A stretch of DNA of 64,000 nt from the sequence record PX880100.1, one strand, 5' to 3'. Positions 1-55,461 of this stretch are shown here, in pieces (the stretch's first letter is position 1; every line of letters begins with the position of its first letter). Source of the DNA: a phage. The position numbers and the translations under genes are program-made. Under the pieces are notes generated by a model. It worked only from the letters and a program-made list of their open reading frames with translations, was not told where the DNA came from and did not search any database.

Positions 1-1704
1 AATACTGGATTCATCCGGGAACTCATAAGCATGAGCTTTTGACAGCATCTTACGGTGATGATTATAAAATGCTACTGGTTTATCAAACTCAATCAAAGAG
101 CCATATGCTTCAATTGTTTCTGCACTAATATCCCCATCAGATAATATAATAATTTTTGCAGTTGCAAGAATGTCCCGAAGAACCTGAATACATTCACGAC
201 GTTGTTTAACAACCGGGGCGAATAATAGGTCATTCATTACAGCATCACATTCATCGATAAAGATTGCATCAATTTGACCAATAAAACTCTTGAACTTATG
301 CAAAGAGTGAATAGTTGTGGACATACGGTCAATAGCACCACGCTTAAAATTAAGCATATCTACAGACTTATCATATTGTCCTGCACTGAATTTCTTAGCA
401 TTTGAAGACACCAGCGCTCTAGTATTGGTAATTGCTAAGAAATTACCTTTAATAACTCCCGAATCTAACCAACGCACAACCGCCGTAGTTTTACCTGTAC
501 CTAGACTTGCTTTTACAAAAGTCATATAACCTTCTGGTGGCACAGTATTTAATTTCAAGAAGTTATCAGTTTCTAGAGAATTAGTTTCTAGCTTTTTAAG
601 TGGAATACCTTTTAAAACATCTGGTATATCACGTTTAGAATTATTAACAAATGCTTTCAGAGCCTGTTTACGACCATTATTAAAGTAATCTTGAATATTG
701 CGACTATTATCTTTAGTTGCAATATATTCTGATAAGGCTGGACGAATTTCTTTTTCTAGCCATGCAAAATCAACACCATCCTCCAAAGCTCTATGATAGA
801 GTTTAGGGATAATACGTAGATACACCCCATCCTCAGCTTCTTCTAGTTCGCTGATAGTTTCCTCTACTTTATCAGAGGCAGCTTTTTTACCTTTAATTTG
901 ATCGAGTAAAGAGTAAAACTCCTCCTTAAACTCACCTCTAGTTGTTTCATAGTCAACCAGATTATTGGGTAAATTTACTTTAGAACCCTTAACAAATACC
1001 AGACGTGAAGCACCCTCCGCTTTAAACGGATCTACTATACCATCAATAAATAACGGATCTGCAAAATAATGGAGCTGTACGGAAGAGTAATAAGCTAAGT
1101 CGGCAATATCAAAGCCATACTTTTGTCTACTACTTTCGTTGATAGATGTAAATAAGAATTTGATTTGACCCTGAGTTACTTTAACATTAGATTCTAGTAT
1201 TAAGTGCATTCGGATACCTGGTTTTAGCCCAGCCGAAGACGATGCATGAGCAATAAACCCTGCATCAAGAGGAAACATATCCTCACTAATACTATTTAAC
1301 ATTCTAATAATATGTCGAGCCATGCCAACAAGATCAAACTTGTTACAACCACCTGTATCTACAATACCATCCACGTCCATTGCAATTATATGACTTGGGT
1401 TAGATACATTAAAGTTGCCCTTCTTACGTCGCACATTATTTTTAGGTGCAAGACATCGACCTCGTACCGCAACGATATGAGGGTCAGACGTTAAACGTCT
1501 CATAAGAGGAAGCATTTCTACTAGGGTTTGAGGATCAACTTCATCAATTACATCAAACTTGAAGGGCATTGAAGCTGGTTTACCTTCAGGATGCTTTGAG
1601 GAAAATCTTTTAGCAAAAAGATAGTCTTCTGCTTTAACTTCTCGCCAATTGCCTGTGGCTAAATCGCGATGAAATCCTGCATGACCTTGTAGGATTGAGA
1701 ACAC
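1..1704 (-). CDS. DNA replication P-loop ATPase (primase/helicase-like), partial, runs off window start; probable GTG start at 1704
   Basis: Minus-strand frame open to window edge; Walker A GTGKT; AGGAG 7 nt upstream of GTG; absent from ORF track (truncated, non-ATG start). Confidence 0.55.
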   Translation of the reverse strand, partial: MFSILQGHAGFHRDLATGNWREVKAEDYLFAKRFSSKHPEGKPASMPFKFDVIDEVDPQTLVEMLPLMRRLTSDPHIVAVRGRCLAPKNNVRRKKGNFNVSNPSHIIAMDVDGIVDTGGCNKFDLVGMARHIIRMLNSISEDMFPLDAGFIAHASSSAGLKPGIRMHLILESNVKVTQGQIKFLFTSINESSRQKYGFDIADLAYYSSVQLHYFADPLFIDGIVDPFKAEGASRLVFVKGSKVNLPNNLVDYETTRGEFKEEFYSLLDQIKGKKAASDKVEETISELEEAEDGVYLRIIPKLYHRALEDGVDFAWLEKEIRPALSEYIATKDNSRNIQDYFNNGRKQALKAFVNNSKRDIPDVLKGIPLKKLETNSLETDNFLKLNTVPPEGYMTFVKASLGTGKTTAVVRWLDSGVIKGNFLAITNTRALVSSNAKKFSAGQYDKSVDMLNFKRGAIDRMSTTIHSLHKFKSFIGQIDAIFIDECDAVMNDLLFAPVVKQRRECIQVLRDILATAKIIILSDGDISAETIEAYGSLIEFDKPVAFYNHHRKMLSKAHAYEFPDESSI

Positions 1705-2275
1705 AACAATACTCCTGTGTTGGAAATGAAATAAGTTTTCTTTAGGACTATTCAGAAAGAATAGAACAACTGTTACTGTCAATTTCTCAACAAATTAATT
1801 GCAAATACTGAAGTGGGGTGGCAACTTCCACTTTCACGCTACACTGCCGCTTCACTATACCGCACAAATCCTTGAGGATGGCCGCTAAGCCAGATTTGCT
1901 CACCTAATGCTTCATGTACTAGCTCATACTAGATGTAGTATACCTTACGTCATCACTTCTCAGAGTTTTTCACTCTTCCCGTCTCACTTCACAACCACCT
2001 CACACTAGGTTGCTTCGAGGCCTTACCAGGGTTCCTACGGGATGTAGATCGCTAAGTATTCTATTAATTATTTGTTTAAAAACCAACACGTAACAGTTAA
2101 AACAACCCTTAATGGGGCAGCCTAACTGTTCCGTATCGCGGATTGTAAACAAGAAAAATTAGCAAAATCAATTTTTACTAATGTCTCTCGATTCAATATA
2201 AATATTATATCAAGATTTTGGGCATCCTGCAAGTAAAATTTTCCGGATGGTGCTATCATTGGTCTTGAGTACGAG

Positions 2276-2300
2276 TAAAACCGAGCCAAAATGACTCGGT
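2276..2300 (-). terminator. Rho-independent terminator after 2309..2506 gene
   Basis: Minus-strand hairpin AACCGAG-loop-CTCGGTT followed by U-tract. Confidence 0.5.
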
Positions 2301-2308
2301 TATGTAGA

Positions 2309-2506: not shown

Positions 2507-2889
2507 TTAACCCCGGAACATATATCCCAACACGGTTTAATTGTTCTTTAGCTTCTTTGAGAATATCTGGAGTGTACTCCCAAATATCATCTTCCACCTG
2601 TAAAAAAATGGGGCGAACAACCATCATCCGGCACACGACATATGGCCAAACAACGTGGATGGAACAAAGAGAAATTTAGGGCAACAATTAAACCCATAGC
2701 AGACAATTCATTCCAATCCAATTCCCATTCCCCGGCGTATCCAGACAGGAAAACGCCAATGCATGGATCATCTATTTGCTGCTCAGGAAAAGTGAAAGAG
2801 ACTTGTCTTACCCCCAACCAACGTTGTAGCAGCTTCTCCGCACGTTTCACCAAACTAGGATCAATCTGACGCCAATATACTTGTTCCAT
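2496..2889 (-). pseudogene. frameshifted paralogue of 2899..3327 (intact N-terminal ORF 2587..2889; C-terminal part in +1 frame after an A7/T7 run at 2602-2608)
   Basis: N-terminal CIG and W-EL-MGL-ALN-LF motifs shared with neighbour; C-terminal W-Y-P...L-R-G...PGL block is only in the shifted frame. Confidence 0.5.
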
Positions 2890-7374: not shown

Positions 7375-7403
7375 TATACTCTCCTTCTCTAACTAAGACT
7401 ACT

Positions 7404-20732: not shown

Positions 20733-20804
20733 GCCGTCCTAGTATAATTGGTATTATCAAGCCGTAACTGGTGGAAGATGTAGGTTCGAATCCTACGGTC
20801 GGTA
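20733..20804 (+). ncRNA. tRNA-like element (canonical T-arm, anticodon arm unresolved)
   Basis: GTAGG-TTCGAAT-CCTAC T-arm and 6/7 acceptor pairing; no clean anticodon stem. Confidence 0.3.
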
Positions 20805-21306
20805 AGAACTGGATAACTGATGCTTTTAACGTAAAAGCTTCCGAGGTTAGTTGCGCACTGCCTAAACCACGCGGTAGTTGGTTCCAGACTAACCAACCAG
20901 TCTGCTGAATAGTTTTATTACGATTTAACTATGTCCAGGCTAAAGAAGAACTTTAGAAGGTATTCTAGGATAGTGAAGTTCTTTCTCCACATCGGAGTAG
21001 TTTTTCAAGCTATCCACAAAGTGGGAAATGCTGACATGAGAGATGTCACTAATGGTGCACAATAGCACAGGTAATTCGCGATAATTCCTGTTGAGTAGCA
21101 GCAAAAGGCGGGAAGTCATGACCCCAAGCCTAACCGAGTCCTCAATATACCGCAGGACATAACCACTAAGTCACCCTGACTTAAACTGGAAAATAATAGA
21201 CGTTACTGTATTTTGTCTTGAAATACTTAATGAGTGAGACTTATGACTCTCCCGGTATCGTCTGTATTTTTAAGAGTTTTTACGAGAGTTCTTAAAAATA
21301 CTTAAA

Positions 21307-21381
21307 CGGGGTGTAGTCTAAGGGAGAGGCAGGAGTCTTCTAAATTCCTTTATGCAGGTTCGAATCCTGTCACCTCGGCCA
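21307..21381 (+). tRNA. tRNA-Arg (anticodon UCU)
   Basis: Hand-folded cloverleaf; T-loop TTCGAAT; encoded CCA. Confidence 0.65.
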
Positions 21382-21415
21382 ATTTTATTAACTGTAACTA
21401 AAACAAAGGAAATAT

Positions 21416-22363
21416 ATGTTTAATACTAAAAATATGAAAGAACTGACTTCTGAGCAGAAAGTAATTCGTACTATTAAACGTTGGGGGATTGGTGCTGTAG
21501 TTGGTTTAGCAGGTTTAGTTCTAGCTCTTAACTCCTATACCGTTGTTCAAGACGGTACTGTTAAGACCCAGACTTTCTTGGGTAAAGTTGATCCTAATCC
21601 AGTATTACCTGGTTTCCATGTTGTAAATCCTTTTGCTTCTTTTGATACTTTTAGTACTAAAGATATTGCTCTAAAATTAGATAAACTTCAGGTTCCTAGT
21701 CAGGATAAGTTTAAATCCACTGTTGACCTGACTGTTATGTTGCAGTTTGATGGTTCTAAAGCACCGATTAACCGTATTAATGCAGGTAATCAGGATCAAG
21801 CGTTAGACAAATATGTAACTGAAAAATTACTGTCTACTATTCGTGAGTTTGGTAAGTCTGTACCTAAAGCACAAGATTTATTTGATGCTAAAATTCAGGC
21901 TCAATTGCAAACTGCAATTCAACAGGAAGTTGAAGAGTATGCACGCCCATATGGTTACACAGTTAAGCAGGTGTTCCTTCAGGATATTACTTTGCCACCG
22001 GTAATCATGGAACAGGTACAGAATACCAAAGTTCGTGAAGAACAGGTTAATGCTGCTAAAGCTGAATTAGCTCGTGTTGAACAGGAAGCACAGCAAAAAG
22101 TTAAACAAGCAGAAGCAGATCGTGAAGCTCGCAACAACCAAGCTATTGCTAATGAACGTGACGCAGATGCTAAACTGTACGCAGCTAAGAAAGAAGCTGA
22201 AGCTAACGCCGCATTGCAACGTACCATTACTCCTGAGATGATTCGCTGGAAGCAACTGGAAGTTGAAATGATCCGTGCTCAGAAGTATCAAGGTGGTGTA
22301 CCACAGACGGTAGTTGGTACTGGTTATGATGGCCAAATGATCATGGATATGCGTAATAAATAA
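21416..22363 (+). CDS. SPFH/band-7 domain membrane protein (prohibitin/HflC-like)
   Basis: N-terminal TM helix; SPFH-like core; long coiled-coil C-terminus. Confidence 0.6.
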   Translation: MFNTKNMKELTSEQKVIRTIKRWGIGAVVGLAGLVLALNSYTVVQDGTVKTQTFLGKVDPNPVLPGFHVVNPFASFDTFSTKDIALKLDKLQVPSQDKFKSTVDLTVMLQFDGSKAPINRINAGNQDQALDKYVTEKLLSTIREFGKSVPKAQDLFDAKIQAQLQTAIQQEVEEYARPYGYTVKQVFLQDITLPPVIMEQVQNTKVREEQVNAAKAELARVEQEAQQKVKQAEADREARNNQAIANERDADAKLYAAKKEAEANAALQRTITPEMIRWKQLEVEMIRAQKYQGGVPQTVVGTGYDGQMIMDMRNK

Positions 22364-22387
22364 TACCCGCATGTAACATCTGAAGTA

Positions 22388-22421
22388 AGCCCTGCGTTTC
22401 CTGGAGAGCGCAGGGCTTTTC
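22388..22421 (+). terminator. Rho-independent terminator
   Basis: AAGCCCTGCG...CGCAGGGCTT hairpin then TTTT. Confidence 0.6.
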
Positions 22422-22459
22422 TATATAATGTAATTATAAAACTAACTAGGAGATTAAAC

Positions 22460-22978
22460 ATGGGTGTTGATGAATTAACACAGCATCTTCTATCTAGAGG
22501 ATTTGATGCAGATAAATATCATTGCTGGTTAAGTCCGGAAGGATGGCTAACAGTCCCGTTGTATGATTTCTCTGGGATGTTGAGGGGCTATCAAACTTAT
22601 AATCCTTCTGCTCCAAAAGGTCATGGTAAGTATCCCTTTGAAGCTAAATATTTTACCTATTCTACTACCCAGTGTGTATGGGGATTAGAAACTCTCAATG
22701 GAGATGAAAAAGTAGTATTGATCGCTGAATCTGTATTTAAGGCAGTTGCGTTACATAACGCTGGTTATCCAGCCCTAGCAATGTTGGGTTCTTCTCCAGG
22801 AAAAGCGTTATTAAAGCAACTGAAATTATTACCTTTTAAATTGGTAGCTGTCGGGGATAACGATCCTGCGGGTGAAAAATTTGCTAGAAAATTAAACGGC
22901 TTTGTTTCTCCTGTAGATGTGGATGAGATGTCTACCGAAAACTTGAAAAATTTTCTTGCTATGAAGCTAAATTTCTAA
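22460..22978 (+). CDS. hypothetical protein, possible Toprim-like fold
   Basis: IAES and GDNDPAG acidic motifs resemble Toprim. Confidence 0.4.
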   Translation: MGVDELTQHLLSRGFDADKYHCWLSPEGWLTVPLYDFSGMLRGYQTYNPSAPKGHGKYPFEAKYFTYSTTQCVWGLETLNGDEKVVLIAESVFKAVALHNAGYPALAMLGSSPGKALLKQLKLLPFKLVAVGDNDPAGEKFARKLNGFVSPVDVDEMSTENLKNFLAMKLNF

Positions 22979-22999
22979 TATAATATATCTTATAAATTC

Positions 23000-23088
23000 G
23001 GAAGAATAGCATAACGGTATTGCAGCAGATTGCTAATCTGTCGGTTTGAAATATAGCCTTGTGGGTTCGATTCCCACTTCTTCCGCCA
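23000..23088 (+). tRNA. tRNA-Ser (anticodon GCU), long variable arm
   Basis: Perfect acceptor stem; T-arm GTGGG-TTCGATT-CCCAC; encoded CCA. Confidence 0.7.
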
Positions 23089-23094
23089 AATTCT

Positions 23095-23172
23095 GGTTCT
23101 CAAGCTCATATGGTATGAGCACCCAGCTCATAACTGGAAGGTACGTAGGTTCGAATCCTCGGGGAGCCACCA
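23095..23172 (+). tRNA. tRNA with CAU anticodon (Met/fMet/Ile2)
   Basis: Acceptor GGTTCTC/GGGAGCC; anticodon loop CTCATAA; weak T-stem. Confidence 0.5.
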
Positions 23173-23390
23173 ACTTAATTAGGGGATTACAAGTGGAATT
23201 ATACATAGTTTATGTTGTGTTTATTCAAGATAGAGAATACCCTGATGAATATAAAAAAGGATATAGGTTAGCCAGAGCTACCTCTGAAGTCCAAGCTATG
23301 GATAAAGTGGCAGATTATATGATTACGGTAGAAAACGTACACTATATCGACTACCTTGAGGCCTCAAAAGTAATTGACTAAGGAGACTAT

Positions 23391-23576
23391 ATGTCCAAGT
23401 TTCAAGAACTCAAGCAAGAGCTAGAAGAATGTGCCTGCCCTGAGTGTAGGGGAATTGGTGAAAGTTCTGATGCAGAAGCAGGAGATACTTTTTGCAATAT
23501 CTGGGTTTGCCCAAATTGCAATGGTACAGGTATTAATCCTAACTGTGGTATTTCTCTAGATATTGAAAGAGGGTAA
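23391..23576 (+). CDS. small zinc-ribbon protein
   Basis: CPECRG...CPNCNG paired CxxC. Confidence 0.45.
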   Translation: MSKFQELKQELEECACPECRGIGESSDAEAGDTFCNIWVCPNCNGTGINPNCGISLDIERG

Positions 23577-23677
23577 TATCTGTGAAACTAAAAGATTATT
23601 ATATTGGTTGGTTTGTGGGACTAGTAGTAGGATTTTCACTAGGCTATAATATGTATCAACTAATAAACTGATTACAC

Positions 23678-23754
23678 GGGGGTGTAATCGAATTGGCATA
23701 GGTACTGGACTTAAAATTCAGGTTTTGTGGGTTCGAATCCCACCACCCCTACCA
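23678..23754 (+). tRNA. tRNA, anticodon UAA (Leu-type) with short variable arm
   Basis: Acceptor GGGGGTG/CACCCCT; T-arm GTGGG-TTCGAAT-CCCAC; loop CTTAAAA. Confidence 0.5.
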
Positions 23755-23769
23755 AATTAAGGAAATAAG

Positions 23770-23937
23770 ATGTATAGACCTCCACCTCCGCCAACACGTC
23801 GTTCTAGAGAAGTTATCCTCATGGAATTGACTAAAAACTTCAAGGCAACTCTTGAAGATAGAGATTTAGGCACGGATGAAGACATTGATTTTATTTGTAG
23901 ACTATTAAAGATGAAACTGGAGAAACAACATGGCTAA
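23770..23937 (+). CDS. hypothetical small proline-rich protein (55 aa)
   Basis: Hand-translated; AAGGAAA upstream; stop overlaps next ATG. Confidence 0.4.
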   Translation: MYRPPPPPTRRSREVILMELTKNFKATLEDRDLGTDEDIDFICRLLKMKLEKQHG

Positions 23938-24136
23938 TCCTGAAATTACCGCACAACGTTTCATGCTTAAAGGCATGATTGCTGAAGCAGGTATGACTCA
24001 AGAGGTTGCAGACTTTCATAAGCAAATTCTTGATATTATAACTCTAGCTAAAGAGACTGGAGAAAAAGAGCACGCAGCAGCAATTATGGCTATATCTCTT
24101 ATTAGTCTAGACTTGGCTGAAGAATCTGGAGTTTAG
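23930..24136 (+). CDS. hypothetical protein
   Basis: ORF track. Confidence 0.4.
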   Translation: MANPEITAQRFMLKGMIAEAGMTQEVADFHKQILDIITLAKETGEKEHAAAIMAISLISLDLAEESGV

Positions 24137-24226
24137 CTCCTCCAAATAGAATTTTTAAAAATGTACTTGCCTTTTGCTTTAAATTTCTGATATAATAGTT
24201 ATATAAATTGATGAAGGAGTTAACTA

Positions 24227-24502
24227 ATGCAAAATCGTGTTATAGCAACTGGTATTGAAAGTGCAATCTGTAAATCCTGGGAAGGCTGGGAAGGTGAGAT
24301 TGAATGGCTTTATTTCTATGATGTAGAACTTCTGCCGGAAGTTAAAGCTAAATGTGTTGAAGCTGGAATGGCTCCAGATGCAAAAGCTGATATTGATATT
24401 TCAATGTCTGAACTTAAAGGCCGTGTAATTACTGTTAGTGATGAGGGTGAAGAAGTTTTCGAACTTCCATTCTCCTTAACTGTCACTCCTAAGTTCGACT
24501 AA
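24227..24502 (+). CDS. hypothetical protein
   Basis: ORF track; promoter cassette and AAGGAG upstream. Confidence 0.45.
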   Translation: MQNRVIATGIESAICKSWEGWEGEIEWLYFYDVELLPEVKAKCVEAGMAPDAKADIDISMSELKGRVITVSDEGEEVFELPFSLTVTPKFD

Positions 24503-24584
24503 CTAATACAGCACTGAGCAAGTTCTTTAAAATTTGACTTGCTCAGTGCCTTAAAACTTGGTATAATAGTTATCTAATTTGGAA

Positions 24585-24634
24585 ACATATTTAAAAGTGT
24601 TTAAACTAGTATTTGAATACTTTTAAATATGTTG
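24585..24634. repeat. perfect palindrome, 15-bp arms (AACATATTTAAAAGT / ACTTTTAAATATGTT)
   Basis: Read directly; between promoter and tRNA-Tyr. Confidence 0.8.
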
Positions 24635-24735
24635 GATTAGTATCGTAGAGGTAGCGAAGCAGACTGTAAATCTGCCGACTCGGAAGGGTCTCGGGTGGTT
24701 CGACTCCATCATCCATCATCCATCATCCAACACCA
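24631..24735 (+). tRNA. tRNA-Tyr (anticodon GUA) with 14-nt heptamer expansion before the 3' acceptor strand
   Basis: Anticodon stem GCAGA/TCTGC; T-arm GGTGG-TTCGACT-CCATC; ATCCATC x2 inserted before ATCCAAC-A-CCA. Confidence 0.5.
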
Positions 24736-24742
24736 AATTTAA

Positions 24743-24819
24743 GTCCTGTTAGACAAACTGGTAAAGTCACTACCCTTTCAAGGTAGGATTTGCGGGTTCG
24801 ATCCCCGCACAGGACGCCA
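24743..24819 (+). tRNA. tRNA-Glu (anticodon UUC)
   Basis: Perfect acceptor and anticodon stems; T-arm GCGGG-TTCGATC-CCCGC; CCA. Confidence 0.7.
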
Positions 24820-24827
24820 ATTTCTGC

Positions 24828-24904
24828 ATTCCTAGAGTGTTACTGGACAGCATGTCGGTCTCCAAAATCGTACGGTCTAGGTTCGAGTCCTAGTAGGTTT
24901 GCCA
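24828..24904 (+). tRNA. tRNA-Trp (anticodon CCA)
   Basis: T-arm CTAGG-TTCGAGT-CCTAG; loop CTCCAAA; acceptor has two U-U mismatches. Confidence 0.5.
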
Positions 24905-24910
24905 AAATTT

Positions 24911-24985
24911 GCACCTTTAGCTGAGATGGATTAGCGCTTGCCTGAAGAGCTTGAGAGGTTCGTTCGATACGAACAGGGTGCACCA
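24911..24985 (+). tRNA. tRNA-Phe (anticodon GAA)
   Basis: Acceptor GCACCTT/AGGGTGC; T-arm GTTCG-TTCGATA-CGAAC; anticodon stem imperfect. Confidence 0.5.
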
Positions 24986-25002
24986 AATTGAGGGGGCTGC
25001 TG

Positions 25003-25275
25003 ATGCATCCTGAAAACTTCTTTATTTACTGCGCTGATAAGTCGCTGAAACGTAGAATTAACAAAGTCTATCATTATCGTGCTAGTCAACAGCCTTATGT
25101 ATATGCTTTTGACGGTGATCACATTCCATTAGAACAATTATCTTGTGATTACATGATATTGAAGAACTTTGACGAGACAAAGATCTCAAGCGTTCATAAT
25201 CGACAGAATCCCTTAACGTGGAAATATAAGAAGAAAAAGAAAGGCATCAAATTCTTAAAAAATGTAGTTGCTTAG
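25003..25275 (+). CDS. hypothetical protein
   Basis: Track ORF trimmed to first ATG after GAGGGGG, clear of tRNA-Phe. Confidence 0.4.
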   Translation: MHPENFFIYCADKSLKRRINKVYHYRASQQPYVYAFDGDHIPLEQLSCDYMILKNFDETKISSVHNRQNPLTWKYKKKKKGIKFLKNVVA

Positions 25276-25307
25276 TTTCCAAAAGTTCTGTATAATAATT
25301 ACATAAA

Positions 25308-25550
25308 TTGAACTGGAGAAGCAACATGACAGAACAAGAATTGAATGAACGTAAGCTGGTAATGCTCCGCTTACTAAACATTTTCTCTGGTATGGATGGG
25401 GGTATTGACTTTGTTCATCTACGTTCTTTTGTAGAAGAAGCAGAAGGTGAATCTATCACTAAAATCCTTAAACATATGGGTTTACTATTAGATGCTGCTG
25501 GTGTAGCAACGGAATATAACCTCGAAGATCTACCGGAGCGTATTAAATGA
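25308..25550 (+). CDS. hypothetical protein
   Basis: ORF track; promoter cassette and GGAGAAG upstream. Confidence 0.45.
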   Translation: MNWRSNMTEQELNERKLVMLRLLNIFSGMDGGIDFVHLRSFVEEAEGESITKILKHMGLLLDAAGVATEYNLEDLPERIK

Positions 25551-25735
25551 AGAAGCCAAAAGCTAAATTAGTTAAGTTCGACTGTTGTGACACAGAAATC
25601 TTATTCACTAAGTTTGGTGAATTTAAGATGTGTGAATGTGGAACATGTGGTTATGATCATGGTGATGGATATTATTGCAGGACTCTTGGACCAGCAAATC
25701 TAATCCACTTTTCATGGCCGGAAGATAAAGAATAA
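25547..25735 (+). CDS. small Cys-rich protein
   Basis: CC..., CECGTCGYDHGDGYYC; overlapping start. Confidence 0.4.
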   Translation: MKKPKAKLVKFDCCDTEILFTKFGEFKMCECGTCGYDHGDGYYCRTLGPANLIHFSWPEDKE

Positions 25736-25737
25736 TT

Positions 25738-25812
25738 GCATCCTTGTCCGAGTGGCTTAGGTGACGGTCTGCAAAATCGTCTAGGTTGGTTCAATTCCAG
25801 CAGGGTGCTCCA
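25738..25812 (+). tRNA. tRNA-Cys (anticodon GCA)
   Basis: Acceptor GCATCCT/AGGGTGC; loop CTGCAAA; T-arm GTTGG-TTCAATT-CCAGC; weak D-stem. Confidence 0.55.
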
Positions 25813-25818
25813 AATTCA

Positions 25819-25901
25819 GGGTCGTTAGCCAAGCGGTTTGGCGGTGGACTGTTAATCCATGTCGAAAGACAACGTAGGTTCGAATCCTACACGGCCCGCC
25901 A
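25819..25901 (+). tRNA. tRNA, anticodon GUU (Asn-type) with 13-nt variable arm
   Basis: Good D-stem and anticodon stem; T-arm GTAGG-TTCGAAT-CCTAC; CCA. Confidence 0.55.
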
Positions 25902-26003
25902 AATTCTGTGTAGAGTTAAGTAAACCGGTAGCCAACCAGCTATCATTGCTGACATCGAATTCAGCCACAGATACCATTTTCATTAATAACTGAGGAAACA
26001 AGC

Positions 26004-26189
26004 ATGTCCAAGAATGTAATTGCGCAGCTAGAAGTTCATCGTGATAGCACTATCAACAATATTGAAGTTGAGAAGAAATACATCGAAGAACTTAAACATG
26101 ATATACTAGTAAGTCTCAACCGTCTTAATGTACGAAAAGAGTTTCTTAAAGAACTTAATGCAGCTATTGAAAAACTCAAAGCTGAGTAA
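26004..26189 (+). CDS. hypothetical protein
   Basis: ORF track; GAGGAAA upstream. Confidence 0.4.
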   Translation: MSKNVIAQLEVHRDSTINNIEVEKKYIEELKHDILVSLNRLNVRKEFLKELNAAIEKLKAE

Positions 26190-26198
26190 ATGAATTAT

Positions 26199-26275
26199 GC
26201 GACCGGGGCTGGCTTGGTAATGGTACTCCCCTGTCACGGGAGGGAATGTGGGTTCAAATCCCATCGGTCGCGCCA
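26199..26275 (+). tRNA. tRNA-Asp (anticodon GUC)
   Basis: Perfect acceptor and anticodon stems; T-loop TTCAAAT; CCA. Confidence 0.7.
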
Positions 26276-26292
26276 AATAAGGTAGGTTAGCT

Positions 26293-26451
26293 ATGGAACG
26301 TAGAGAGTTTACTCCAGAAGAGATAGAGCAGATAAAAGAATCTGCTACGAAAAATGCTAGAATATCTCTGTCACTAGAAGGTATCATTATTAGTGATGTA
26401 AACTTTGAAAAAATCAAAGCCATAGCTGATGAACTGGAAAAAGTAATTTAA
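26293..26451 (+). CDS. hypothetical small protein (52 aa)
   Basis: Hand-translated between tRNA-Asp and tRNA-Lys. Confidence 0.35.
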   Translation: MERREFTPEEIEQIKESATKNARISLSLEGIIISDVNFEKIKAIADELEKVI

Positions 26452-26452
26452 T

Positions 26453-26528
26453 ACATCCATAGCTCAATGGTTAGAGCTACCGCCTCTTAAGCGGAGGGTT
26501 CTAGGTTCAAGTCCTAGTGGGTGTACCA
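26453..26528 (+). tRNA. tRNA-Lys (anticodon CUU)
   Basis: Canonical D-arm TAGCTCAATGGTTAGAGC; T-arm CTAGG-TTCAAGT-CCTAG; CCA. Confidence 0.7.
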
Positions 26529-26554
26529 AACTAAACTAGCACGAGAAATATACT

Positions 26555-26902
26555 ATGCGTAATGCTAAAGAAGAGTTGTTACTTGCCTTAAAAAATACTA
26601 ATTCTGAAGTTAAGTGTATTAAAATAGAATTCGGGTATTATGGGGACAAAAAAGTTTGGGTATTACCTCTGGGGTATACAGAAGAAGATATTGGGGATTT
26701 TCTTAATAACCTAGACTTTGAGTATGATTCTGGTTATGGTGGACAACTACTTTATGGTAATGTATGGTTTGCCGATGGAACCTGGCTAGAACGTGGGGAA
26801 TATGATGGAGCTGAGTGGTGGGAATACAAGGCTACTCCAGCAATTCCAGAGGAATGCCGAACAATTAATGGTGAAGTAGATAATACTTTAAGGTTAAACT
26901 AA
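26555..26902 (+). CDS. hypothetical protein
   Basis: ORF track. Confidence 0.45.
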   Translation: MRNAKEELLLALKNTNSEVKCIKIEFGYYGDKKVWVLPLGYTEEDIGDFLNNLDFEYDSGYGGQLLYGNVWFADGTWLERGEYDGAEWWEYKATPAIPEECRTINGEVDNTLRLN

Positions 26903-27295
26903 TAAAATTTCAGTGCAGAACACGGAGCTAGCAATTCGGAAGTGCTGACTCATGATAAGCTGCCTATGTACTTGCAAAGCGGTCGTGTCCAAGACTCGGA
27001 CTCTTGCACTGAAAACAATCAAACATTCTAGCGTGGTTGATGGGGAAACCAGCTTGGCTAGGGCAGAAGCTCGTTCGATTCGAGTGAAAGAATGGTTCTC
27101 GTAAGTCCGCACAAGTGATAATAGGTTCGAGTCCTGTCTAGAATGACACTATAAAGTTTACTTATTATGTAGGTTCCGATAGATCGGCGGGTCTATTCTG
27201 GCATTTAAGAGAGGTCTCGCAAACTTCTTTGTCAGCCGTGGGGTTGGTAGCCTCCAGGTGGCCTACACAATAAGTAAATTTATTAAAAATTCATT

Positions 27296-27324
27296 TGCTA
27301 TTTCTCTTAATTATCTGTATAATA
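27296..27324 (+). promoter_or_regulatory. N25-like early promoter driving tRNA-Pro/tRNA-CAU
   Basis: TTGCTA-17 bp-TATAAT; followed by SD plus ATG with only 3 codons, then tRNAs. Confidence 0.6.
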
Positions 27325-27518
27325 TATTTTATAAAGTGAAGAGAAGGAAAGCAAAATGAAACACAAGATAGCTCAAGTTTTTATGGCATTATGGTGTATG
27401 CCAATAGCTATAACAGCATTTAATCTAGATACTTTTACTATAGAAGAAAAATGTATCGGATTAGTTAGTGGCTTTAGTATGCTTGGCTTATCTTTGTTGT
27501 GGTTGAAGAAATAATATT

Positions 27519-27596
27519 CTCCGTGTAGCTCAGTTTGGCCAGAGCGTTTCGTTTGGGGCGATAGGGTCGGGGGTTCAAATCCTCCCACGGAGACCA
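27519..27596 (+). tRNA. tRNA-Pro (anticodon UGG)
   Basis: Acceptor CTCCGTG/CACGGAG; D-arm GCTC...GAGC; T-loop TTCAAAT; CCA. Confidence 0.6.
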
Positions 27597-27602
27597 AACA
27601 AT

Positions 27603-27680
27603 TGCGGGTTAGATCTCTGGTAGAGATCGCTAGTCTCATAAGCTAGAAAGAGGTAGGTTCGATTCCTGCACCCGCTTCCA
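27603..27680 (+). tRNA. tRNA with CAU anticodon (Met/fMet/Ile2)
   Basis: D-stem GATC/GATC; anticodon stem CTAGT/GCTAG; T-loop TTCGATT; CCA. Confidence 0.6.
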
Positions 27681-27700
27681 TTTTAATAGAGGATTTCGAA

Positions 27701-27868
27701 ATGAAAGTATTTCGATTAGTAGTAAGTGACAAACGCTTAGGTAAGAATACATCAAAATCCTTACTTGCTCATTATGGTAGAAATTGGGATGAAGTAATGG
27801 CAGAGTTTAGTACTAATCACTCTTACTTGAAAGTTCACTCTATTAAAGAAGTATACAATGGTTACTAA
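27701..27868 (+). CDS. hypothetical small protein (55 aa)
   Basis: Hand-translated; SD-like upstream; ends 2 nt before tRNA-Lys. Confidence 0.4.
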   Translation: MKVFRLVVSDKRLGKNTSKSLLAHYGRNWDEVMAEFSTNHSYLKVHSIKEVYNGY

Positions 27869-27869
27869 T

Positions 27870-27948
27870 AGATCGCTAGCTCAATAGGTTTAGTAGCATC
27901 CGACTTTTAATCGGAAGGTTCTGGGTTCAAGTCCCAGGCGATCTACCA
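27870..27948 (+). tRNA. tRNA-Lys (anticodon UUU)
   Basis: Perfect acceptor AGATCGC/GCGATCT; anticodon stem TCCGA/TCGGA; T-loop TTCAAGT; CCA. Confidence 0.7.
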
Positions 27949-27952
27949 ATTT

Positions 27953-28026
27953 GCTCGGTTAGTTTAATGGGAGAACCCCGTCTTTACATGGCGGTTGAGA
28001 TAGTTCGATTCTATCACCGGGTACCA
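27953..28026 (+). tRNA. tRNA-Val (anticodon UAC)
   Basis: T-arm GATAG-TTCGATT-CTATC; anticodon stem CCGTC/GGCGG; CCA. Confidence 0.65.
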
Positions 28027-28045
28027 ATTAACTCAAAATAAGGAA

Positions 28046-28405
28046 TTGCAAATGCAATTATCAAGCAAGATTCAAGGTTATTTCGGTCATGTGACAATGG
28101 AGTTCGCTATCTCTAAAGGTTGGGACTTCGAACAAGATTTAGCTGAGTTCTACAAAGATATTGATCTGAACGTACCGTACATGGGACTTTCTACTGGTCA
28201 GGAGATCACAGAAGCCGATGTATTCAAGGCAAGTCAAGGTGAGGTAACACCTAGTTTTGCCGAGTTCTGGTTAGGCATTACGTTAAAAGAAGATGCACCA
28301 GATAGTGGTGTACTAATGTCTAGTATGCACTCTGGAAGTTCCGATTACCTTTTCATTAGCGATGTTAAGGAAATACAAGAAGTCTGCAAAAATGTACTTG
28401 CTTGA
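28046..28405 (+). CDS. hypothetical protein
   Basis: ORF track; AAGGAAT upstream. Confidence 0.45.
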   Translation: MQMQLSSKIQGYFGHVTMEFAISKGWDFEQDLAEFYKDIDLNVPYMGLSTGQEITEADVFKASQGEVTPSFAEFWLGITLKEDAPDSGVLMSSMHSGSSDYLFISDVKEIQEVCKNVLA

Positions 28406-28664
28406 TGCTTAATTTCTTGTTATAATATTTATATAAATTGATGAGGAGAAATCCTCATCATAGTTCACTAAGGTATTAGCTCGACCTAGGACTGGCTGCC
28501 AAAAAGCACGATCCCTACGATTCGGGAGAAGTTCTAGATTGGTCCACTAGATTCAGCGGCAACTGAATAGTGTATTGGGTTTGCGAGATGACGTAGTTCC
28601 TTCCGCTCTAAGCGAAGGTGCTGTAGTTACGCCGAGCTAATAGCCTTAGTAAACTAAAGAATTT

Positions 28665-28743
28665 GGGGAATGGGTCTGCATGGAGTGGACACCTCGCTTG
28701 CACCGAGGACATCAGAACGGTTCGATTCCGTTATTCTCCACCA
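28665..28743 (+). tRNA. tRNA-Ala (anticodon UGC)
   Basis: Anticodon stem CCTCG/CGAGG; T-arm AACGG-TTCGATT-CCGTT; CCA. Confidence 0.65.
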
Positions 28744-28748
28744 AATAC

Positions 28749-28825
28749 GCGTGATTGATGGAATTGGCATACATACCGTCCTTAGAAGTCGGGTTTTGAG
28801 GGTTCGAATCCCTTGTCACGCACCA
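28749..28825 (+). tRNA. tRNA, anticodon UAG (Leu-type) with short variable arm
   Basis: Perfect acceptor GCGTGAT/GTCACGC; T-loop TTCGAAT; loop CTTAGAA. Confidence 0.5.
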
Positions 28826-28937
28826 AATTTGATGGTCAGAGTAAATTAAACCTACTATCTCGGTTGAGCTGTTTTAATGGGTTCGAATCCCAGCGAGGCG
28901 TAACTGCCTGGTGTGATAGAGGCATCATCTTATTATT

Positions 28938-29028
28938 GGAAGAGCAAATCGAATTGGCGACGAAAACCGCTTGGAAAGTGGCTGACTGGTAAAACGGCTT
29001 GAGAGTTCAAATCTCTCCTCTTCCGCCA
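28938..29028 (+). tRNA. tRNA-Ser (anticodon GGA), class II
   Basis: Perfect acceptor GGAAGAG/CTCTTCC; T-arm GAGAG-TTCAAAT-CTCTC; long variable arm; CCA. Confidence 0.6.
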
Positions 29029-29040
29029 AACAATTTATAT

Positions 29041-29135
29041 GGTAGGTCAATCCAATGGCTGGCGTGGGACTCCGACTTGAAATCGGTTGATCGTAGTGAT
29101 ACGGTGTAAGGGTTCGATCCCCTTACCTACCTCCA
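29041..29135 (+). tRNA. tRNA-Ser (anticodon UGA), class II
   Basis: Perfect acceptor GGTAGGT/ACCTACC; T-arm AAGGG-TTCGATC-CCCTT; 20-nt variable arm; CCA. Confidence 0.6.
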
Positions 29136-29501
29136 AATCTTGAAGTATGCCGGAATCGGTAGACGGGGCTGCCTAAAAGGTTTATAGGGAACATCCACTC
29201 CCTGCAACATACCCCATAAAGCGGCTGAGATAAATGGTCTATCTCGTGAAGGTTCAAGTCCTTCTGCTTCTTGATACATCAATGGCTCAAAGTGTAACGG
29301 CGCTATTTGATGCGCTTAGTAAGACTTCCCCGACATGCGTTCGGGAGTAAGCTGCTAAGGCTAGAGTAGAAGAGTTTCTGAGAGCCGCCACAATTGAAGA
29401 TTCGTACTCGTCTTGAGCTGCGTGCAATAGGAGATAACTTGATTAGTATTCTAGAACATGCTAATTGAGGAAGGTTTCGCTAACCCTGCGAGTTTTCAAT
29501 T

Positions 29502-29578
29502 GTGGCTATATCATAATTGGTTAATGATCCTGATTGTGAATCAGGCCTATGTGGATTCGAATTCCACTAGCCACCCCA
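29502..29578 (+). tRNA. tRNA-His (anticodon GUG)
   Basis: Perfect acceptor and anticodon stems; T-arm GTGGA-TTCGAAT-TCCAC; CCA. Confidence 0.7.
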
Positions 29579-29603
29579 AATTAACTTAAATAGGAAATAA
29601 AAT

Positions 29604-29798
29604 ATGGCTGATTTCTGCAAACAATGCTCCATTGATATGTGGGGCAGAGATACTGGTGATCTTTCTGGTTTGATTACAGAAGCTGAAGTTAAAGAAGGCT
29701 ACGGTGCTGTTGTGATTTGCGAGGGATGCGGAGTTATTCGAGTAGATCATGAAGGCAAACGTTTGGAAGAATCTGAGCCAACAACAATTTTTCCGTAG
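29604..29798 (+). CDS. small zinc-ribbon protein
   Basis: CKQC...CEGC; AGGAAAT upstream. Confidence 0.45.
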   Translation: MADFCKQCSIDMWGRDTGDLSGLITEAEVKEGYGAVVICEGCGVIRVDHEGKRLEESEPTTIFP

Positions 29799-29810
29799 AA
29801 TAAAAATTAT

Positions 29811-29886
29811 TGGGATGTAGATCAATTGGCAGATCGTCGGCCTCTGACTCCGAAGGCTCCACGTTCGATCCGTGGCATCCCAGCCA
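29811..29886 (+). tRNA. tRNA-Gln (anticodon CUG)
   Basis: Perfect acceptor TGGGATG/CATCCCA; D-stem GATC/GATC; T-arm CCACG-TTCGATC-CGTGG; CCA. Confidence 0.65.
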
Positions 29887-29892
29887 AATAAT

Positions 29893-29968
29893 TGGAGAGT
29901 AGTGTAACGGTTAGCACAACGGCCTTTGACTCCGTTAATGGTAGGTTCGATTCCTCCTTCTCCAGCCA
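29893..29968 (+). tRNA. tRNA-Gln (anticodon UUG)
   Basis: Paralogous anticodon arm to previous tRNA; T-loop TTCGATT; CCA. Confidence 0.6.
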
Positions 29969-29976
29969 AATAATAA

Positions 29977-30052
29977 GCGGTTAAGCACACGGGTTGTGTC
30001 GCAGGCCTTCCAAGCCTCGCTGAGTAGGGTTCGATTCCCTCTAGCCGCTCCA
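29977..30052 (+). tRNA. tRNA-Gly (anticodon UCC)
   Basis: Acceptor GCGGTTA/TAGCCGC; loop CTTCCAA; T-loop TTCGATT; CCA. Confidence 0.55.
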
Positions 30053-30068
30053 ACTTTAAGGGGACATT

Positions 30069-30290
30069 ATGCACGTTTTTGAGTTTCGTAATAAAAGTAC
30101 CGATAAACGAGTTATTGTTATCGGGGAAACATACCGAGCATACGAACAAACTGACGGCTCTGTTATCCTGAATGACGAAAAAGGAGGTTTTAGCTTTTAT
30201 CCCAAAGAAACTTACGAAGAATTTCGTACAAAGTTTCTTCTACCAGACTGGCTAGAAGTAGCGCAGCAACGAGAACCCGAAGATGGCTGA
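30069..30290 (+). CDS. hypothetical protein
   Basis: ORF track; SD-like AAGGGGA upstream. Confidence 0.45.
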   Translation: MHVFEFRNKSTDKRVIVIGETYRAYEQTDGSVILNDEKGGFSFYPKETYEEFRTKFLLPDWLEVAQQREPEDG

Positions 30291-30447
30291 TAACCTAAAA
30301 GTCAAGATCGATAAACAAAAGAAACGTGTCGAAGTAGAGATTGGTGAAGAACGTGTAGCCTTCACCTTTGAATTTCTACAACAAATGGCAATGACAGTTA
30401 TGACTGATAAGTCTCCTGTTATTGAAAAAGAAATCCCGTTGAAATAA
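30283..30447 (+). CDS. hypothetical small protein (54 aa)
   Basis: Hand-translated; ATG overlaps upstream stop (ATGGCTGA). Confidence 0.35.
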   Translation: MADNLKVKIDKQKKRVEVEIGEERVAFTFEFLQQMAMTVMTDKSPVIEKEIPLK

Positions 30448-30456
30448 CGGGCTATC

Positions 30457-30531
30457 GCTCCTAAAGCATTGTTGGCGATGCAGTTGCCTTGTAAGCATCT
30501 GAACCGGGTTCGATTCCTGGTGGGAGCACCA
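30457..30531 (+). tRNA. tRNA-Thr (anticodon UGU)
   Basis: D-stem GCAT/ATGC; T-arm CCGGG-TTCGATT-CCTGG; CCA. Confidence 0.6.
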
Positions 30532-30546
30532 AATTTAAAAATTCAT

Positions 30547-30575
30547 TTGCTTTCTCTCTTATTTCTTGTTATAAT
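30547..30575 (+). promoter_or_regulatory. N25-like early promoter
   Basis: TTGCTT-17 bp-TATAAT, then ATAAATTAATGAGAGGG. Confidence 0.65.
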
Positions 30576-30605
30576 ATTTATATAAATTAATGAGAGGGAA
30601 GCCAA

Positions 30606-30899
30606 ATGAAACGTTATCTTTCTGTTGTGTTCCAAACTGGTGGTCAGCGCTATACTTACGAATTTCCTGGCTCTTGGAAAGTCAAAGAAGGTGATCAAGT
30701 AGTTGTATTAACACCGCGTGACGGGTATAAGGTAGTAACGGTTAAGCAAGTATTTTCAAAAGACTATGAACCGTCTAAGTCTATTAACTATAAGATGATT
30801 CATGGTGTAGTTCGTCAAGTACCACGAGCGGAAGTCGAAATCAAAGTAGATAAAGATGATAAACTTAAATATACCTCTTGCATAGACGAGTTGCTATAA
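30606..30899 (+). CDS. hypothetical protein
   Basis: ORF track; promoter and SD upstream. Confidence 0.5.
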   Translation: MKRYLSVVFQTGGQRYTYEFPGSWKVKEGDQVVVLTPRDGYKVVTVKQVFSKDYEPSKSINYKMIHGVVRQVPRAEVEIKVDKDDKLKYTSCIDELL

Positions 30900-31105
30900 T
30901 GAGGATTACTTTTACAGAAAAGATTATGAGTAATGGTGTTATGATCATTACCGCATGGGACAGTAATCAGTGGTGTAGTGTTTCAGGTATTAAGCCTGAA
31001 GAACAAACACTAGAAAATATCTCAAAGATTAAGCGAAGAATGGCAGAACGTGCACGACTTCCAGGTGCACCTAGAAATGGCAAACGTTCTGCTGTGAAAT
31101 GTTAA
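30878..31105 (+). CDS. hypothetical protein
   Basis: ORF track; start uncertain. Confidence 0.35.
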   Translation: MHRRVAIMRITFTEKIMSNGVMIITAWDSNQWCSVSGIKPEEQTLENISKIKRRMAERARLPGAPRNGKRSAVKC

Positions 31106-31106
31106 T

Positions 31107-31183
31107 GCTTCGGTAGCTTAGCGATCTAAAGCACTCGGCTGATAACCGAGAGATCGGGGGTTTAAATCCCTCCCGGAGTACCA
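31107..31183 (+). tRNA. tRNA-Ile (anticodon GAU)
   Basis: Perfect anticodon stem CTCGG/CCGAG; T-loop TTTAAAT; CCA. Confidence 0.6.
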
Positions 31184-31279
31184 AATTTAGGAATTAAGAC
31201 TATGCGTCCAGGAAAGTTTAGAAAAGCTAATTGGTCTAAAGAGTATAAAGAATACTTACTTAGTCTAGTAAAACATAAC

Positions 31280-31355
31280 AGTTAGTTGGCAGAGTGGTTA
31301 TGCACCTCCTTCATACGGAGCGACTACAGTGGTTCAAATCCACTACTAACTACCA
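31280..31355 (+). tRNA. tRNA with CAU anticodon (Met/fMet/Ile2)
   Basis: Perfect acceptor AGTTAGT/ACTAACT; T-arm AGTGG-TTCAAAT-CCACT; CCA. Confidence 0.6.
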
Positions 31356-40326: not shown

Positions 40327-40423
40327 TAAACAAAGCCTGATCTTAGCGGATCAGGCTTTTATTTTACTTGCTTTTTGCTAAAAATTTTGGTATAATACTT
40401 ATATAAATTGATTGGAGGATTAA

Positions 40424-55371: not shown

Positions 55372-55461
55372 TAGTTATACCTTGCCCCCTTCTAGTAAGG
55401 GGGCAATAATATAACTGTTTAGCGATAGTTATTTTCTTCCCTTAAATCAGGAGTTTTAAAA

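Follow-up and report, generated by a model that had tools for sequence, protein, structure and literature searches.

The translational operators of phages, such as those of T4 genes 32 and 43, the RegA sites and the coat-protein operators of MS2 and PP7, are 20-40 nucleotides (nt) long and overlap the ribosome-binding site. The ribonuclease III (RNase III) sites of T7 are single short hairpins with internal loops, the T4 origins oriF and oriG consist of a promoter and a downstream unwinding element with an R-loop primer, and in ColE1 the fold of RNA II matters for function. Phage T5 is a classic model phage, and its replication origin and the control of its essential D2 gene are questions of interest. 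The D2 protein is a bipolar helicase of superfamily 2 (SF2) related to UL9 of herpesviruses; D2 amber mutants make no DNA, the protein has been proposed as the replication initiator, and the T5 origin is undefined at the sequence level, with multiple internal origins reported (PMC3632103). Here we analyse the DNA directly upstream of the D2 homologue in a T5-like phage of the genus Tequintavirus (sequence record PX880100.1). The whole stretch of 64,000 nt that was analysed is called the window; all coordinates are window positions, and all features of the finding are on the minus strand. Along that strand, an intrinsic terminator is followed by a promoter, by ~493 nt without a credible open reading frame (ORF), by AGGAG and by the GTG of the D2 homologue. 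We found that these ~493 nt (2197-1705) make up a structured leader RNA of the D2 mRNA, which is conserved, covarying and specific to the sense strand.

The evidence that carries this finding is compensatory base change. The leaders of the closest relatives fall into two alleles, type A (that of the window) and type B (that of T5 itself), and were aligned by type. The type-A alignment consisted of 10 type-A leaders together with the leader of Pectobacterium phage DU_PP_V and was folded with RNAalifold, and the type-B alignment consisted of 12 leaders. As controls, alignment columns were shuffled (n=500) or the pairing partners were slid by 1-3 columns. Type A with DU_PP_V gave 152 pairs, with 97% of the cells forming standard pairs and 26 pairs showing double changes, compared with 5.4 +/- 1.5 in the shuffled alignments (0/500) and 2-7 in the slid ones. 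Type B gave 153 pairs, 99.6% paired, with 12 double-change pairs compared with 5.4 +/- 1.1 shuffled (0/500) and 0-1 slid. The folding and covariation check proposed in an earlier reading of this DNA from its letters alone (hereafter the sequence-only reading) is therefore well above the controls in both alleles. Several of the double changes in the type-A alignment separate phages that are otherwise ~97% identical. Examples are CUACAU...GUGUAG versus CUGCGU...GCGCAG, CCCGU/ACGGG versus CCCAU/AUGGG, AGAGU/ACUCU versus GGAGU/ACUCC, and AAGUGG/CCACUU versus AAGGGG/CCCCUU.

The fold is also specific to one strand. G-U pairs account for 15-16% of the paired cells, and the alignment fold energies are -111 and -126 kcal/mol for the sense strand compared with only -81 and -94 kcal/mol for the antisense strand. 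What selection acts on is thus the single-stranded sense strand and not the duplex DNA; this single strand is RNA or, less simply, a displaced sense DNA strand. In the window the whole leader has a minimum free energy (MFE) of -135 kcal/mol, with z = -2.5 against shuffled sequences, and the 333-nt core reaches z = -3.2, with 0/100 shuffles folding as well, so that the description of the region as hairpin-prone holds beyond chance. Taken together, the comparative data strongly support the view that the leader would be a functional RNA and not a spacer.

The leader begins with P1, a long 5'-proximal hairpin at 2146..2195 (strands 2195-2173 and 2167-2146) of the form GAGAGAC-AUUAGUAAAA ... UUUUGCUAAU-UUUUCUU. 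The first 57 transcribed nt, 75% A+T, are invariant among Markadamsvirinae. P1 is followed by the nearly invariant bulged hairpin P1c at 2111..2137 (GAU-AC-GG-AA-CAGU-UAG-GCUG-CC-CC-AUU) and by a closing helix, P2/P2b, whose 5' strand at 2055..2099 pairs with a 3' strand at 1767..1809. This helix has 39 pairs, 6 of them with double changes; for example, AACUGUUAC/GUAACAGUU of the window corresponds to AACUAUUAC/GUAAUAGUU in phage Sepoy. It encloses the multi-helix domain P3-P9 at 1810..2054, the part that differs between the alleles (type A in the window, type B in T5) and in which covariation was found in P3, P4, P5, P7, P8 and P9. Here P3 (2052-2042 with 1844-1836) has an AU bulge, P4 (2041-2037 with 1982-1978) carries the arms P4a and P4b, and P5 (1976-1962) reads AGAGU-GAAAA-ACUCU. 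P6 is at 1935-1901 and P8 at 1863-1846, on either side of P7 (1864..1899), a hairpin with the invariant hexaloop of GGC-UUAGCG-GCC (loop 1888-1883). P9 (1810..1835) is the hairpin GAAAGUGG-AAGUUGCCACC-CCACUUC with a conserved GUUGCCA loop (AAGUUGCCACC); it has 4 double-change pairs, with UA replaced by GC within type A. The last hairpin, P10 (1748..1764, CUAUUC-UUUCU-GAAUAG), stands between the closing helix and the ribosome-binding site, and it is not a terminator because no U tract follows it. Close to the start codon, a 3-bp UCC/GGA hairpin touches the Shine-Dalgarno (SD) sequence in the window, and a small anti-SD/SD hairpin recurs among the groups compared (UCC/GGA, UUCUUC/GGAGAA, CCU/AGG).

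The boundaries of the leader are set by the transcription and translation signals at its two ends. The early sigma-70 promoter at 2204..2232 has the -35 element TTGCAG (2232-2227), a 17-nt spacer and an extended -10 element TGaTATAAT (2212-2204), in which TG is 2212-2211 and TATAAT is 2209-2204. The sequence-only reading had proposed TTGCAG-17-TATAAT near 2150-2190; the promoter is real, and its position was misplaced by ~40 nt. The homologous site is annotated as a promoter, with a terminator before it, in the T5 record AY543070, and an equivalent TTGC(A/C)-17-TATAAT promoter at the same distance to the first hairpin was found in all enterobacterial groups compared. It was missing from our consensus scan because its -35 element matches TTGACA at 3/6 positions only. 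From its position, transcription would probably start near 2197. At the other end, the SD sequence AGGAG (1716-1712) and the GTG start codon (1704-1702) of the D2 helicase gene occupy 1702..1716 and are separated by 7 nt. The N-terminus MFSIL is kept in other genera, where the homologues have an ATG at this position, and the GTG start suggested earlier is thereby confirmed. An in-frame ATG exon upstream, which would speak against this arrangement, was looked for back to the TAA at 1797-1795, and there is none.

The leader had been described as about 480 nt of untranslated sequence, and its ~493 nt agree with this. Its longest sense ORFs have 50, 38 and 26 amino acids (aa) and are all TTG- or GTG-initiated; their position and length differ between the alleles, none is common to both, they are absent from the other groups, and no conserved ORF was found in the leader. 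It had also been called GC-richer, which is modestly true (0.41-0.42 compared with 0.34-0.38 in the immediate flanks), but some coding stretches are similar. A terminator scan of 1400-2600 on both strands gave no terminator-like site, and hence none between the core and D2, so the leader would form the 5' portion of the D2 message. By position it is a cis leader, since it stands between promoter and ribosome-binding site within one transcription unit and with no intervening terminator. The suggestion of a small RNA does not survive, as the element is a multi-helix RNA of ~490 nt with no terminator before the D2 start.

To examine conservation we compared 27 distinct leaders, taken from IMG/VR and from several GenBank phages. 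Hardly any variation is seen in the first ~135 transcribed nt or in the last ~75 nt, and the central ~290 nt exist as two very different alleles of equal length and architecture, which have little in common beyond GAUCU, GGCUUAGCGGCC and CAGC. Type A is represented in the matching records, ~164/533 of which cover at least 80% of the query, while type B is the allele of T5 and of Epseptimavirus; the genus Tequintavirus contains both. The D2 proteins follow the same division, with 99-100% identity to the window in type-A phages and 91% or less in type-B phages. Phage L010 joins a B core to a 3' tail of type A, a sign of recombination within the leader. Within an allele the leader diversity is 0.02-0.07, no higher than in the D2 coding sequence. 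In Escherichia phage mar003J3 (L071:16-468) a putative homing-endonuclease gene stands directly upstream and the promoter sequence is different, but the transcribed leader is unchanged. Conservation resumes there at GAGAGACAUUAG, just after the inferred start, and this is the pattern of a transcribed element. Three IMG/VR leaders (L011:197-789, L018:483-1072 and L032:247-838) contain an insert of ~89 nt between P1 and P1c, with the direct repeat TTTTTCTT on either side; it has the appearance of a small insertion that duplicated its target site, in a linker where this is tolerated. At the same place phage oselot has ATTTTGCTA in triplicate, which is lineage-specific.

The same layout of terminator, TTGC(A/C)-17-TATAAT promoter, leader of 470-620 nt and D2 recurs in further enterobacterial lineages, namely Klebsiella Sugarlandvirus, phage Eos, Providencia phages PR1 and PSTCR5 (Priunavirus), and Pectobacterium phages DU_PP_V (Hongcheonvirus) and My1 (Myunavirus). 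The groups were compared by local folding, as MAFFT did not register the sequence-unrelated helices of different groups with one another. P1, P1c, P2, P7 and P10 recur with unrelated helix sequences. A 5' hairpin of 16-19 bp is present in 13/13 representatives with different sequences, and a closing duplex of -25 to -42 kcal/mol, again with unrelated sequences, is likewise present in all 13; this helix has roughly 20-40 bp across the groups, around a core of ~330 nt. The P1c of Sugarland reads GCAU-AC-AG-AA-CAGU-CCG-GCUG-CU-AC-AUGC, in which GG/CC has become AG/CU by compensatory change. The stem of P7 differs in every group and its UUAGCG loop is constant, as in My1, where GAC-UUAGCG-GUC is again a compensatory change. 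The loop is 304-310 nt from the start in most groups (328 in Priunavirus), and the segment from P7 to P9 spans 94-99 nt in all of them. The counterparts of P10 are CUAUC/GAUAG, CCAUC/GAUGG, CCUG/CAGG and CUUUCC/GGAAAG. In sum, the element was found in every enterobacterial T5-like lineage examined, with a compensatory fold across at least six genera. The sequence-only reading saw the leader itself and missed this family-wide, allelic and ornate character.

Outside the enterobacterial groups, T5-like phages of Aeromonas have a 1.3-kb leader at the position upstream of D2, with no ORF above 55 aa. It gave 392 predicted pairs, 95.7% paired, and 87 double-change pairs compared with 5-16 when the partners were slid. 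GNRA-type loops cap stems in it that have covaried fully, and a UUAGCG loop is present in two of its hairpins. Vibrio phages have gene-poor regions of 650-1100 nt upstream of D2; the leaders of Thalassavirus are too alike among themselves for a covariation test, and the leader region of Vibrio phage phi3 has an unannotated antisense ORF of 102 aa. An nhmmer search with a profile of the enterobacterial leaders misses both the Vibrio and the Aeromonas regions, and homology beyond the enterobacterial groups is for this reason only suggested. The element is single-copy in the window, a two-motif pattern search of 185,579 bacterial and archaeal genomes gave no copy, and in metagenomes it was found on T5-like contigs only; the metagenome and genome scans yielded no further lineages. 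In Proteus phage PM135 (L070:1480-2300) a similar T5-type promoter is followed by ~800 nt without annotation, which contain degenerate tRNA-like T-arm sequences and are in the tRNA region, not upstream of obp.

The hexaloop of P7 also occurs outside the leader. Two intrinsic terminators of the window carry it, at 40333-40366 (+) and 55409-55440 (+), with the sequences AAAGCCUGAUC-UUAGCG-GAUCAGGCUUUUAUUUU and AAUAUAACUGU-UUAGCG-AUAGUUAUUUUCUUC. In relatives the terminator at 40333-40366 keeps UUAGC(G/U), while its stem covaries from GAUC/GAUC to AGUC/GACU or AGAUC/GAUCU. The occurrence of UUAGCG in terminators is compatible with a shared factor which recognises the loop, or with an unusually stable loop.

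At the upstream side of the locus, the terminator at 2275..2301 (AACCGAGUCAUUUUGGCUCGG followed by UUUU, inverted repeat I11) closes a cluster of small genes, and a terminator is also annotated at the homologous site in the T5 and HASG4 records. The region of the finding is 98-99% identical to many Tequintavirus genomes, for example those of E. coli phage KS_S14 and Salmonella phage SaI_NFG_5581. A second promoter-like site, TTGATT-18-TACAAT at 2142-2171 (-), is in the invariant 5' part of the leader and overlaps P1; its conservation outside Markadamsvirinae is not obvious. A sequence resembling the -10 region of the leader was also noticed near 28415 (+). In the DUF7415 gene a T run at ~2600-2612 (-) is 1 nt longer than in SaI_NFG_5581 (CCCCATTTTTTTA versus CCCCATCTTTTA) and splits the 393-nt gene of the relatives into the overlapping ORFs 2587-2889 and 2496-2636; the difference marks a frameshift or pseudogene, or else a sequencing error in the homopolymer. 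The 24 tRNA genes are clustered at 20733-31355 (+), on the strand opposite to the replication genes.

Downstream, the 5' part of the D2 gene, annotated 'replication origin binding protein' (SF2 UL9-like helicase), occupies 1..1704 (-) and runs off the window. The protein is the counterpart of T5.108 and matches Pfam Herpes_ori_bp and PHROG 3712. Its N-terminal domain, residues ~100-220, has invariant D110xD112, S155xSxGxxxGIRxH167 and D202 in 11 phages of Enterobacteria, Vibrio and Aeromonas. The DxD and SxGxxxGxRxH motifs recall motifs I-III of the archaeo-eukaryotic primases, a likeness which neither sequence searches nor a model confirmed. A Pfam search did not bear it out, a profile search against PDB gave nothing significant, a homologue search gave 2 matches, and a single-sequence AlphaFold model (predicted local distance difference test, pLDDT, 33) gave no confirmation of primase-like motifs.

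We also compared the leader with the known RNA families. At the gathering threshold, Rfam 15 finds 24 tRNAs only in the window, and in the region 1500-2500 at E<=10 only chance-level matches resembling small nucleolar RNAs appear, at <=17.6 bits. The leaders of the other alleles and genera gave nothing relevant at either gathering or permissive thresholds. Group I and II introns, RNase P, transfer-messenger RNA (tmRNA), 6S RNA, T-box, riboswitches, GOLLD, ROOL, OLE and HEARO were ruled out, as none has an Rfam 15 match; in addition, ARAGORN reports no tmRNA and only the tRNA cluster at 20.7-31.4 kb. For a group I intron, the core of which the sequence-only reading also could not recognise, there is no Rfam match down to E = 10; moreover, the D2 N-terminus is complete from the GTG in all homologues, and the in-frame stop stands at 1797-1795. 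A riboswitch or attenuator was rejected because there is no terminator and because the one strong alternative pairing found, ACGGAACAGUUA/UAACUGUUACGU (I5), is lost in type B and in other genera. A C/D-box or K-loop reading of CUGA-GAAG-UGAUGA was rejected too, as the sR17 match is weak and the motif is not conserved even within type A. An iteron-type origin was rejected since 1650-2350 contains only two imperfect direct repeats of two copies each. No description of the element was found in the searchable literature. We regard it as a new family of RNA, though its general type, that of structured leaders or large non-coding RNAs (ncRNAs), is familiar.

What the leader does is a question on which we can offer only graded readings. 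The one we tentatively favour, with somewhat less than even confidence, is that it would act in cis as a protein-bound regulatory and processing leader of the replication operon. According to this reading, the host RNA polymerase would transcribe the leader and the D2 mRNA from the early promoter, and the folded leader would serve as a protein-binding platform in cis. A factor of the phage or the host, possibly D2 itself, would recognise the invariant P1c and UUAGCG loops much as it would an operator, and the platform would thereby determine how much, when and how stably D2 and the replication operon are expressed. The closing helix P2, with its length, would probably be a processing site for a double-strand-specific enzyme of the RNase III type, and the 5' hairpin P1 a stabiliser. 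The recurrent weak anti-SD/SD hairpin and the GTG start fit translational damping, and the UUAGC(G/U) loop kept in a terminator elsewhere is compatible with one factor recognising the loop. The term cis-regulatory leader used in the sequence-only reading is borne out in so far as covariation, strand specificity and cross-genus conservation argue for a functional RNA leader; its regulatory part is unsupported, as pairing of the SD is weak and the leader showed no feature of a riboswitch, T-box or attenuator.

Several points weigh against the cis-acting reading. The core of ~330 nt and 10 helices is far larger than the known translational operators or riboswitches. The SD is only weakly sequestered, by 3-6 bp and independently of the core, and is largely free. 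A long-range GCGAUAC/GUAUUGU pairing close to the start codon is unsupported by covariation, since DU_PP_V disrupts it. The start site, the processing and the regulatory effect are things that we infer, and the binding protein is a postulate. Finally, two sharply different alleles in near-identical phages, together with the 1.3-kb form in Aeromonas, are explained no less well by an autonomous RNA or a determinant of specificity.

The last point leads to the alternatives in which the RNA itself is the active product. We regard it as doubtful, though possible, that the leader belongs to an undescribed class of large ornate RNA which would do more than tune expression and would be active in replication initiation or as a ribonucleoprotein (RNP), with the core alleles as specificity determinants; its active role would be that of an origin transcript, a primer or helicase-loading scaffold, or an RNP recognised through the UUAGCG and bulged-hairpin loops. 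Unlikely in our opinion is the related proposal that an enzyme such as RNase III cuts the closing helix P2 to release the ~330-nt core (about 1.2 kb in Aeromonas) as a stable trans-acting ncRNA or RNP, which would act in host takeover, in anti-defence or as a replication cofactor while D2 merely shares the promoter. The size and complexity of the core and its closing duplex of roughly 20-40 bp do resemble the stems from which stable RNAs are processed, the fold of the isolated core is better than that of its shuffles (z = -3.2), and divergent alleles exchanged among similar phages, as in the L010 recombinant, are typical of diversifying selection. The 1.3-kb Aeromonas version, with its 87 double-change pairs and its GNRA-type loops over covarying stems, points the same way. 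On the other hand, no terminator is present, the processing site and the trans target or partner are postulates, and there is no similarity to the ROOL, GOLLD, OLE, 6S, tmRNA or RNase P models. Moreover, the element is always directly upstream of D2, in one copy per genome, with none in bacterial genomes and metagenome occurrences on T5-like contigs only.

The position beside the presumed initiator helicase D2 also suggests an origin element, in which an early transcript through the AT-rich first ~57 nt would make an R-loop or primer RNA; in a variant, the hairpins of the exposed sense DNA strand would be recognised for priming or D2 loading, like single-strand initiation signals. We consider this quite improbable. 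A strong promoter is indeed followed just downstream by a 75% A+T segment which is invariant at the DNA level, the arrangement by which R-loop origins are defined, but AT-rich downstream regions are a general trait of T5 promoters, and for that reason the segment is weak evidence for an R-loop origin. The fold is specific to the sense strand, which would also be the displaced strand in an R-loop, and the allele pairs could reflect initiator/origin specificity, in line with the D2 division described above (99-100% for type A, 91% or less for type B). The invariant UUAGCG hexaloop contains TAGCG and recalls the terminal CS-6 (TAGCGT) loop of ssoA single-strand origins, which are folded single strands that also have an RSB site, though here it is found in a double-stranded DNA phage and downstream of a promoter. 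That the T5 origin is unmapped to sequence, with multiple internal origins reported, leaves room for such an element (PMC3632103). Against it, there are no iterons or multi-copy direct repeats, and the GC skew shows no inflection at the leader and switches near 7400. As for an mRNA leader, the conserved stretch sets in at the transcription start and stops at the ribosome-binding site; the GNRA-type tetraloops over covarying stems in Aeromonas favour folding as RNA; and the primase-like motifs suspected in D2 were not confirmed. We give hardly any weight to the idea that the region has no specific function and is a hairpin-prone spacer, a decayed gene remnant or a stretch encoding small proteins. 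Some records annotate 3-4 small 'hypothetical proteins' here, and the whole-leader MFE z is only -2.5; yet in each of two independent alleles the double compensatory changes are far above both controls, genera with unrelated sequences have kept the architecture, and the within-allele diversity of the leader is not above that of the D2 coding sequence. The small ORFs, with their TTG and GTG starts, differ between alleles and are absent in the other groups.

Whichever reading applies, a covariation-supported RNA of ~0.5 kb stands at the head of the replication operon, before the gene most likely to control replication initiation, and provides a concrete, mutable handle on the T5 origin and on D2 control. 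It adds a candidate to the few very large structured RNAs of bacteria and phages whose functions are unsolved. The two interchangeable core alleles are a natural swap experiment, and the 1.3-kb Aeromonas version is large enough for direct cryo-electron microscopy; if that leader is homologous, the class would extend over more of the T5 family.

When compared to the known systems, the D2 leader shares features with several of them. Like GOLLD, ROOL and OLE, it has several hundred nt and many helices, with invariant loops amid covarying stems; GOLLD and ROOL are often found in prophages, the D2 leader is likewise phage-associated, and in neither case can the function be deduced from the sequence. 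Unlike these RNAs, it is fixed 5' of one gene, lacks its own terminator, occurs only in T5-like phages and matches none of their models, even at permissive thresholds. Riboswitches and T-boxes are likewise structured 5' leaders in which stems covary and unpaired nucleotides are invariant, but the D2 leader has no Rfam aptamer match and no terminator/antiterminator pair, and it is well above the known aptamer size. T4 oriF/oriG and ColE1 RNA II resemble it in combining a strong promoter and an AT-rich segment with a structured non-coding part, here of ~500 nt, beside replication functions; the D2 leader transcript, by contrast, continues into a translated gene, gives no sign of an R-loop or of an RNase H site, and has no sequence or model similarity to them.

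Two further systems for comparison are the phage translational operators and the RNase III stems. The D2 leader is, like the operators, RNA of a 5' untranslated region upstream of a replication gene, possibly with a logic of autogenous control, and P1c is similar in style to the MS2 and PP7 operators, with its AA bulge four pairs below the loop. It differs from them in its ~490 nt and in having conserved hairpins 150-400 nt upstream of a largely accessible Shine-Dalgarno sequence. With the stems cut by RNase III in rRNA precursors, in the T7 early mRNA and in the lambda N leader, P2 has in common that it is a long imperfect duplex formed by sequences that flank a folded domain. Such precursors have a near-continuous flanking duplex of ~20 bp or more, and P2/P2b, with 39 pairs in a phage early transcript, is a duplex of this kind, at which cleavage is predicted. 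Unlike the T7 sites, the P2 stem encloses a domain of 250 nt.

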